Shown here piece after piece: positions 59,870-59,951 of a stretch of 64,000 nucleotides of DNA. Every line of letters starts with the position of its first letter. The first letter of the stretch is position 1. The stretch lies in the sequence record PQ529420; one strand, given 5' to 3'. The notes under the pieces are model-generated. The model saw nothing but the letters and a program-made list of their open reading frames with translations. It was not told the DNA's origin and did not search any database. This DNA comes from Escherichia phage Eryne. Made by a program: the position numbers and the translations under genes.

Positions 59870-59951
59870 CGGGGTGTATCTCACCTGACTTCTAATCAGG
59901 CGTTAACCGAGTAATTGGAGTATGCAGGTTCGAATCCTGTCACCCCGGCCA
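59870..59951 (+). tRNA. atypical tRNA-like element with Arg-type (TCT) anticodon hairpin, CCA encoded
   Basis: 7-bp acceptor CGGGGTG/CACCCCG, T-arm CAGG-TTCGAAT-CCTG, hairpin CCTGA-CTTCTAA-TCAGG, but no canonical D-arm; a 24-nt unpaired stretch precedes the T-arm. Confidence 0.3.

Follow-up and report, generated by a model that had tools for sequence, protein, structure and literature searches.

For the D-armless tRNAs of mitochondria, an extension of the anticodon stem through connector pairs was proposed in the older literature. Such tRNAs, e.g., mammalian tRNA-Ser(AGY), form a three-way junction in which only a short connector separates the acceptor stem from the anticodon stem (PDB 7U2B; PMC11551756). 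Natural tRNAs that lack an arm have been stated to be known only from mitochondria, while bacterial tRNAs are all described as cloverleafs (PMC11551756). A D-armless tRNA has also been evolved artificially for use in E. coli, and this synthetic mini HisT is accepted by the HisRS, EF-Tu and ribosomes of this host without a D hairpin (PMC11551756). Other departures from the canonical plan include the permuted and split tRNA genes of Cyanidioschyzon merolae and of Archaea (PMC3218864), in which the order of segments is non-canonical, and the allo-tRNAs with 8/4 or 9/3 geometry, a non-standard group mined from metagenomes of which some lie in phage tRNA clusters (PMC5389517).

Here we describe a locus at positions 59870-59951 (+) of the window, i.e., the whole 64,000-nt stretch of Escherichia phage DNA that was analysed, whose RNA would likewise form a three-way junction with a short connector between acceptor and anticodon stem. 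We estimate a probability of about 0.75 that this locus encodes a functional, phage-specific tRNA-Arg(UCU) with a non-cloverleaf core that decodes AGA and AGG on the host ribosome, an assessment based on sequence comparison.

Anatomy and detection of the locus

Rereading the sequence confirmed the components that an initial annotation of this DNA had named, i.e., an acceptor stem, a T-arm, a discriminator G and an encoded CCA, together with a hairpin of the anticodon type that starts only 7 nt past the first acceptor strand. A canonical D-arm hairpin is absent from this gap, and the geometry of acceptor and T-stem is the standard 7/5. From the promoter to the 3' end, the locus consists of the following features:

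59830-59858 (+): sigma-70-type promoter with TTGACA at 59830-59835, a 17-nt spacer and TATAAT at 59853-59858, matching the consensus at 12/12 positions
59850-59851 (+): TG in the promoter spacer, upstream of TATAAT
59870-59876 (+): 5' strand of the acceptor stem, CGGGGTG, partner of 59941-59947, with compensatory changes at 7/7 pairs
59877-59879 (+): connector UAU (TAT in the DNA), whose third U faces U59912
59880-59882 (+): 5' strand of a D-stem-like helix, CTC, partner of 59909-59911; the helix encloses the anticodon arm
59883 (+): A, a hinge base like that at position 26, facing C59908
59884-59900 (+): anticodon arm, with stem CCTGA/TCAGG, loop CTTCTAA and anticodon TCT at 59891-59893
59901-59908 (+): bulge CGTTAAC plus C, conserved in a subclass-dependent manner
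59909-59911 (+): 3' strand of the D-stem-like helix, GAG, covarying with 59880-59882
59912-59923 (+): D-loop-like single-stranded connector TAATTGGAGTAT, joining the helix to the T-stem
59924-59940 (+): T-arm, with stem GCAGG/CCTGT and loop TTCGAAT; compensatory changes at 4/5 pairs
59941-59951 (+): 3' strand of the acceptor stem, CACCCCG, with discriminator G59948 and encoded CCA at 59949-59951

The consensus promoter that had been placed just upstream of the gene is indeed perfect and carries the TG as an extra element; transcription would be expected to start about 4-5 nt 5' of the mature 5' end. The stretch behind the anticodon hairpin had been described as 24 nt of unpaired sequence containing AATTGG. 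An insert of this type is present, but it measures 23 nt and is not wholly unpaired, since covariation indicates base pairs between its GAG (59909-59911) and the CTC of the 7-nt connector (59880-59882). The surrounding region is ca. 99% identical to phi92-like coliphages (Justusliebigvirus, Stephanstirmvirinae). A tRNA array starts in this region, and ARAGORN finds 15 genes in it, none for arginine.

Whether this gene is seen at all depends on the tool. With the Rfam tRNA model RF00005 it reaches 38.6 bits, above the gathering score of 29 (E = 1.4e-4 over the whole window), but only with the D-arm deleted, 15 model positions being reduced to 4 nt, and with 20 nt inserted in the variable region. 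Chance would not account for such a feature. Other than tRNA, an Rfam search of positions 59400-60300 returned only weak chance matches. ARAGORN makes no call at the locus. A covariance model built for the family described below scores the locus at 99 bits and family members at 82-102 bits, whereas canonical tRNAs do not exceed ca. 32 bits. In GenBank, a few records label the gene "tRNA-OTHER" or "tRNA-Undet" and most leave it blank; the copy of phage 121Q is mis-annotated as tRNA-Leu, and that of Felix O1 is present but unannotated. Many phage genomes are blank at these genes that ARAGORN misses, or overlaid with hypothetical ORFs. Because the genes are missed or unlabelled, analyses of tRNA-Arg(UCU) content and codon compensation would be systematically wrong for these phages.

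Covariation across a family of phage genes

The 49-nt internal core of the gene is shared by 224 phage records of GenBank, e.g., those of Felix O1, 121Q, phi92-like phages and T5-like Klebsiella phages. Across 55 Justusliebigvirus records its identity is 100%, and in Felix O1-like phages, Mydovirus, T5-like phages and jumbo phages it is 80-90%. Full-length relatives recovered by blastn from unrelated phages, i.e., Felix O1-like myoviruses, Klebsiella T5-like phages, Mydovirus, the jumbo phage 121Q and a Streptomyces phage, are 82-86% identical, and the first homologs from unrelated genera (the Streptomyces phage among them) already carried compensatory changes. Pattern scans of IMG/VR and metagenomes yielded at least 122 distinct sequences after strict parsing. 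Two alignments are referred to below, A1 with at least 55 distinct members and A2, an independent metagenome set, with at least 80 distinct rows.

Outside phage genomes the family is hardly found. No copy turned up in a search of 5,426 complete E. coli genomes, and among 185,579 bacterial and archaeal species, represented by one genome each, only 4 MAG contigs carry a family member. The other 31 pattern matches among these species genomes, in which a tRNA-like context is absent, were dismissed as chance. The family appears to be phage-restricted and to represent an apparently undescribed structural class of tRNA-Arg.

The proposed helices are supported in both alignments. In A1, 94.6% of cells are paired, compared to 64% after shuffling and 33-46% with slid partners, and A1 and A2 taken together give 94.6-97.4% against ca. 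65% for shuffles and 33-50% for slid partners. Compensatory changes are found at all 7 pairs of the acceptor stem (listed members of A1 and A2), at 5/5 pairs of the anticodon stem in the listed A1 members and 4/5 in those of A2, and at 4/5 pairs of the T-stem (listed members of A1 and A2). The additional 3-bp helix joins alignment columns 11-13 with 40-42, i.e., CTC at 59880-59882 with GAG at 59909-59911, at positions that the search patterns had left unconstrained. All 165 of its 165 cells are paired in the listed A1 members and 240/240 in the listed A2 rows, where the same range of pair types occurs, and all 122 listed sequences form it in 12 different three-pair combinations. Among the listed A1 members, pair 12-41 is UA in 34, GC in 11, AU in 9 and CG in 1, pair 13-40 is CG in 44, GC in 7 and UA in 4, and pair 11-42 is CG throughout. 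The adjoining hinge (column 14 with column 39) is mostly an A.C or C.A mismatch, with AC in 64, CA in 25, AU in 12, CG in 8 and UG in 6 of the 122 listed sequences.

Judged by these patterns, the anticodon arm is nested in a D-stem-like helix that is followed by the D-loop-like, probably single-stranded UAAUUGGA. The anticodon branch would comprise (3-4)+5 bp, interrupted by the hinge and the bulge, and the junction would therefore be three-way, not four-way.

Several other pairings were considered and rejected. The minimum-free-energy structure from RNAfold contains a small hairpin within the insert, CCGA/UUGG (59907-59910 with 59915-59918), which finds no support across the family: it is 70% paired, with 1 compensatory cell in 215. 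Pairing of CTC 59880-59882 with a second GAG at 59918-59920 cannot persist because the columns of this GAG are invariant while those of CTC change. For the bulge, UUAA with UUGG is contradicted by variation of column 46 without compensation, and UUA with the UAA of the 3' connector involves invariant bases only, is missing in the subclass with a short bulge and is unsupported. The first hairpin does not qualify as a D-arm either: the 23-nt stretch behind it fits no 17-nt hairpin, and its own loop is of the conserved U33-NNN-A37 type with arginine anticodons. Finally, removal of an intron or other processing back to a cloverleaf was discarded, as excision alone cannot achieve this when nothing 5' of the anticodon arm forms a D-arm.

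Beyond the helices, a number of single-stranded positions are conserved. In the first sequence sets, some of the invariance, namely in CGTTAA, GTAA and GGAGTATG, was imposed by the search patterns. The same holds for the connector TAT, found in 55/55 listed A1 members, whose extraction required it; where it was left free, 114 of the 122 listed sequences have TAT and the other 8 have TAC. The T-loop matches TTCRANY in 122/122 and CCA is encoded in 93/122 listed members, and the bases at the U33 position (T21) and at position 37 (A25) are invariant in the listed A1 members. In the strand that leads to the T-stem, GG (columns 48 and 49) is invariant in the family and is followed by A in 121 of the 122 listed sequences, and likewise in 39/39 of those listed from a search whose pattern left the position free; the AT at the end of this strand is kept in 38 of these 39 listed members.

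Two subclasses became apparent once the bulge was left free in the pattern. The first, to which the window copy belongs, has a 7-nt bulge of the form C-R/T-T-Y-A-A-N and a 3' connector that ends in GG-AGUAU. In the second, the bulge measures 2-4 nt and the connector ends in GG-A(U/C)(G/U)AU. Both subclasses share the core UAU-C.. / ..G-UAA(N)YGG-A..AU, and the bulge is not essential to the fold because one subclass replaces it with 2-4 nt. The link between fold and arginine is not a strict one, since a sister class of the same topology carries a TAT anticodon. Remnants occur as well, a truncated copy in L019 and one of those in L094 that is interrupted in the T-arm.

Our proposal for the core follows from these strands. 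The initial annotation had suggested that D-arm and anticodon arm look transposed and that the RNA may be a structurally permuted tRNA. The first idea is essentially right and the second is supported and can now be specified strand by strand: the strand that corresponds to the 3' half of a D-stem precedes the anticodon arm, and the strand that corresponds to the 5' half follows it together with the D-loop-like segment. In canonical numbering, the chain would run 1-9, 22-26, 27-43, bulge, 10-21 and 48-76. The CUC just past U8-A9-U would pair with the GAG past the anticodon arm and coaxially extend this arm, set off from it by the A.C hinge and the 7-nt bulge. The 5' strand of the new helix would head to the anticodon as 22-25 do, and its 3' strand would return to the elbow as 10-13 do and enter the D-loop. 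The usual tertiary partners could therefore still meet, with the backbone threaded differently.

For the U and A at the start of the connector, which are invariant, we propose U8 and A9 as canonical counterparts. The strand UAAUUGGAGUAU would be an open D-loop with purines resembling A14 and R15, in which G18-G19 would dock on the T-loop and form the elbow, and it would also bring in an adenine like A20, the main determinant for E. coli ArgRS, as well as a U like Y48 just before the T-stem. Its features fit this proposal, with two purines that may correspond to A14 and R15, one or two pyrimidines in place of 16-17 and a final AU that may supply Y48, the partner of R15. Specifically, we propose A59913 as A14, A59914 as R15, GG at 59917-59918 as G18 and G19, A59919 as A20 and T59923 as Y48. 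We regard this detailed mapping of tertiary contacts as an even bet. Since most of the proposed partners (U8/A14, R15/Y48, G18-G19 with the T-loop, and A20) do not vary, they lie beyond the reach of covariation, and the three-dimensional fold is offered as a hypothesis.

Probable arginine identity, gene neighborhood and alternative readings

The anticodons of the family read arginine codons in 121 of the 122 listed sequences (TCT 108, CCT 5, ACG 5, TCG 3, with a single ACT), and more diverged copies of the same topology add GCG. One 37.5-kb contig carries three copies in this fold with the anticodons UCU, CCU and ACG, and the fold therefore follows arginine identity and not one loop sequence. 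The UCU of the window copy would read AGA and, by wobble, AGG.

The identity set of E. coli-type ArgRS consists of A20 as the major determinant, C35, U or G at position 36 and A or G at position 73 (PMC9976931). Among the listed A1 members, column 23 (C35) is C in 55/55, and at column 24 (position 36) 53 members have T and 2 have G. The discriminator is G in 74 and A in 41 of the 122 listed sequences, i.e., one of the two in 115/122, and G in the window. The adenine after GG, A59919, sits in the open strand and not in a D hairpin, and its spatial equivalence to A20 would depend on the proposed threading.

Gene order indicates what these genes may replace. In the Felix O1-like phage AYO145A, the gene lies between tRNA-Ile(GAU) and tRNA-Ser(UGA) in the order Lys, Met, Ile(GAU), the gene, Ser(UGA), Leu(UAG), Lys(CUU), in an array that has Arg(ACG) and no canonical Arg(UCU). 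Comparison of the homologous position in phage Sf14 of the sister genus Mooglevirus revealed the same order and homologous flanks with a canonical 77-nt tRNA-Arg(UCU) in this slot. No other tRNA-Arg is found in the array of the window or in that of a relative. However, canonical and rewired forms are not always substitutes for each other because they coexist in at least one phage (L039), where a canonical tRNA-Arg(UCU) adjoins a family member. E. coli rarely uses AGA, whereas in the long ORFs of the window (37% G+C) this codon makes up 9.9 per 1000 codons and 24% of all arginine codons.

From this evidence we infer that the gene would be transcribed from its promoter, matured by RNase P and charged by the host ArgRS, and that the product would adopt an L-shape with the canonical equivalences set out above. 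Such an RNA could alternatively be a decoy or sponge that is not used in translation and instead occupies a tRNA-Arg nuclease (colicin D-like, OLD or Schlafen-type) or another tRNA-binding defense protein. Phage tRNAs are known to act against tRNA-cleaving defenses (PMC10264068, PMC11555353 and PMC11464382). OLD of phage P2 cleaves several tRNAs including those for arginine, and both the highly conserved CUUCUAA anticodon loop and the conserved bulge would suit a bait. However, a decoy has no need for the ArgRS identity set, a canonical acceptor/T domain of the kind bound by EF-Tu or an encoded CCA. Its anticodons would not be expected to vary within the arginine set only, with three isoacceptors on one contig, nor would the gene be expected to take the slot of a canonical tRNA-Arg(UCU) and to be the sole arginine tRNA of an array in a phage that uses AGA heavily. 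A decoding tRNA that resists nucleases accounts for the same facts better, and we consider the decoy, which the initial annotation had also raised, unlikely.

A little less likely still is a tRNA that is charged with arginine and then used off the ribosome, e.g., to supply a transferase with arginyl groups or to act in regulation or as a primer, with the odd core serving to avoid the ribosome. Specialized non-proteinogenic tRNAs do exist in bacteria, and this core is unlike that of any tRNA normally handled by the E. coli ribosome. Yet tRNAs of this kind typically lose the determinants for EF-Tu and those in the T-loop, whereas the T-arm is canonical and conserved here, and the conserved anticodon loop with U33, A37 and wobble-consistent anticodons favors codon reading, to which synteny and codon usage also point. 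The third reading, likewise raised by the initial annotation, is a tRNA-Arg gene in decay whose D-arm disappeared by rearrangement. Such a pseudogene would fit the silence of ARAGORN, the blank or indeterminate database records and the existence of true remnants (L019 and L094), but with conservation of the core across very different phages, compensatory changes in 4/4 helices and a perfect consensus promoter it can be rejected as highly improbable.

For a decoding tRNA-Arg, what maintains the fold is a separate matter. It may be kept to escape nucleases, of the host or of competitors, that recognize the canonical tRNA body while the contacts with ArgRS, EF-Tu and the ribosome stay in place, a tentative idea that we rate somewhat below even odds. 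We lean slightly towards the broader interpretation of a natural phage class of three-way-junction tRNA-Arg, found even in textbook examples like Felix O1 and phi92, with a D-stem closed across the anticodon arm and an open D-loop, that would be charged by ordinary ArgRS and read AGA, AGG and CGN on ordinary ribosomes of bacteria, its fold perhaps conferring invisibility to nucleases and further factors directed at the canonical tRNA body. If this is true, the fold would be a candidate phage strategy against tRNA-targeting immunity.

Comparison with known tRNAs

The canonical tRNA-Arg(UCU) of Sf14, of the T5-like phage AKFV33 and of E. coli (argU) share with the locus the CUUCUAA loop, the discriminator G and CCA. 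Many family members have the anticodon stem of Sf14 (ACGGU/ACCGU), and acceptor stem and T-arm are near-identical to those of a canonical T5-like tRNA-Arg(UCU) (32 nt at 97%). The differences lie in the D-stem-like helix that closes across the anticodon arm, the D-loop-like segment that lies 3' of this arm and runs into the T-stem, and the extra 7-nt bulge. The fold was not found in the freely accessible full-text literature, which was also searched with sequence strings, or in reviews on non-canonical tRNAs.

Allo-tRNAs are non-standard through altered stem lengths and keep four arms, whereas the phage family combines the 7/5 geometry with the loss of the D hairpin. Permuted tRNA genes encode the 3' half upstream of the 5' half, with the acceptor halves exchanged, and end-joining and cleavage turn their product back into a cloverleaf. 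The phage gene instead has both acceptor strands at its ends, and no excision yields a 5' D-arm; the mature RNA itself is therefore rewired. If true, this would mean that the tRNA core can be re-threaded with the contacts of the L-shape kept, i.e., a new solution to the fold, and designers of orthogonal tRNA/synthetase pairs would gain a scaffold that evolved in nature.

The D-armless tRNAs of mitochondria have lost the elbow contacts between D-loop and T-loop and work with co-evolved factors, whereas in the phage family the GG, a base resembling A20 and a canonical T-loop are all present, and its members would have to function with the usual ArgRS, EF-Tu and ribosomes of bacteria. Its carriers are not organelles but phages of E. 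coli, Salmonella, Klebsiella, Streptomyces and other hosts, and, if functional, its members would mark the first natural departure from the cloverleaf rule for tRNAs of bacterial translation. Mini HisT is artificial, has no substitute for the D-loop and has a predicted Y-shape. The phage family, by contrast, is natural and conserved and retains the elements of the elbow.

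Atypical genes and promoters of the tRNA array

The tRNA array in the window holds several atypical tRNAs. The features that concern us here are the following:

59495-59570 (+), tRNA-Met(CAU), called by ARAGORN
59690-59797 (+), second tRNA-like element, between tRNA-Leu(UAA) and the rewired Arg gene
59970-59999 (+), sigma-70-like promoter, TTGACA-18-TAGATT, with TG
60015-60104 (+), tRNA-Ser(UGA), called by ARAGORN
61270-61299 (+), sigma-70-like promoter, TTGACA-18-TAGAGT, with TG

The tRNA-Met(CAU) gene scores too low to pass Rfam's tRNA gathering cutoff, and its T-loop, GAUUGUA, is odd. 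The two promoters are further strong ones that lie ahead of other tRNA genes. The array thus appears not to be a single operon but to be transcribed from more than one promoter.

The element at 59690-59797 was neither called by ARAGORN nor matched by Rfam. It combines a 7-bp acceptor stem (GCCUAGU/ACUAGGC) and a T-arm (UAUGG-UUCGAUU-CCAUA) with a 7-bp hairpin resembling a long variable arm (GUUAGAC-CGCUUU-GUCUAAC), and it lacks an encoded CCA. AGGC-CAUCAAA-GCCU is a possible anticodon arm, which would place an A at position 33 and read "UCA". The element is kept at about 100% across roughly 30 Justusliebigvirus records, in some of which a hypothetical ORF is annotated across it, and a single 72% match was found in Salmonella phage UTK0002.

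Unusual tRNAs on the contigs of relatives

The rewired topology, in which a 3-bp helix encloses the anticodon arm and an open D-loop-like strand follows, also occurs with anticodon UAU at two collected loci outside the window (L079 5506-5582 and L196 3368-3448). Both show UAU/UAA and the 3-bp helix, then UAAYGG. Since their anticodon corresponds to the isoleucine codon AUA, the rewired fold is not strictly limited to arginine.

A phage tRNA array on another contig (L041 9-84) contains a tRNA-Ser(UGA)-like gene without a D-arm. It has a UAUUACA connector and a 7-bp variable arm with a GAAA cap, and its non-cloverleaf design is other than the rewired Arg topology. Three further UAU-anticodon tRNAs of 91-96 nt in total (L057 1612-1702, L033 4163-4256 (-), and L086 6269-6364) are normal in the D-arm, but their variable arm, with a conserved ..CYCUAGAUGAGRG.. 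hairpin, is of unusual length.

On a Neisseriaceae MAG contig (L094), the T-arm of a family member at 1458-1540 and downstream is split by an unrelated stretch several hundred bases long, which may be a mobile element insertion. A second, intact copy of the short-bulge subclass lies at 2103-2179.

The neighboring tRNA-Ser(UGA) gene

In 121Q and Felix O1-like phages, the rewired Arg gene is likewise adjoined by tRNA-Ser(UGA). The window's tRNA-Ser(UGA) gene (60015-60104) stays below the threshold of the general Rfam tRNA model and scores 35.3 bits against the Rfam tRNA-Sec model, less than its gathering score of 47. With an acceptor stem of 8 bp (by eye, a ninth pair, G.U, is possible), a 4-bp T-stem, a long variable arm, and a D-arm whose 5-bp stem carries a loop of 4 nt, its fold geometry is Sec/allo-tRNA-like.
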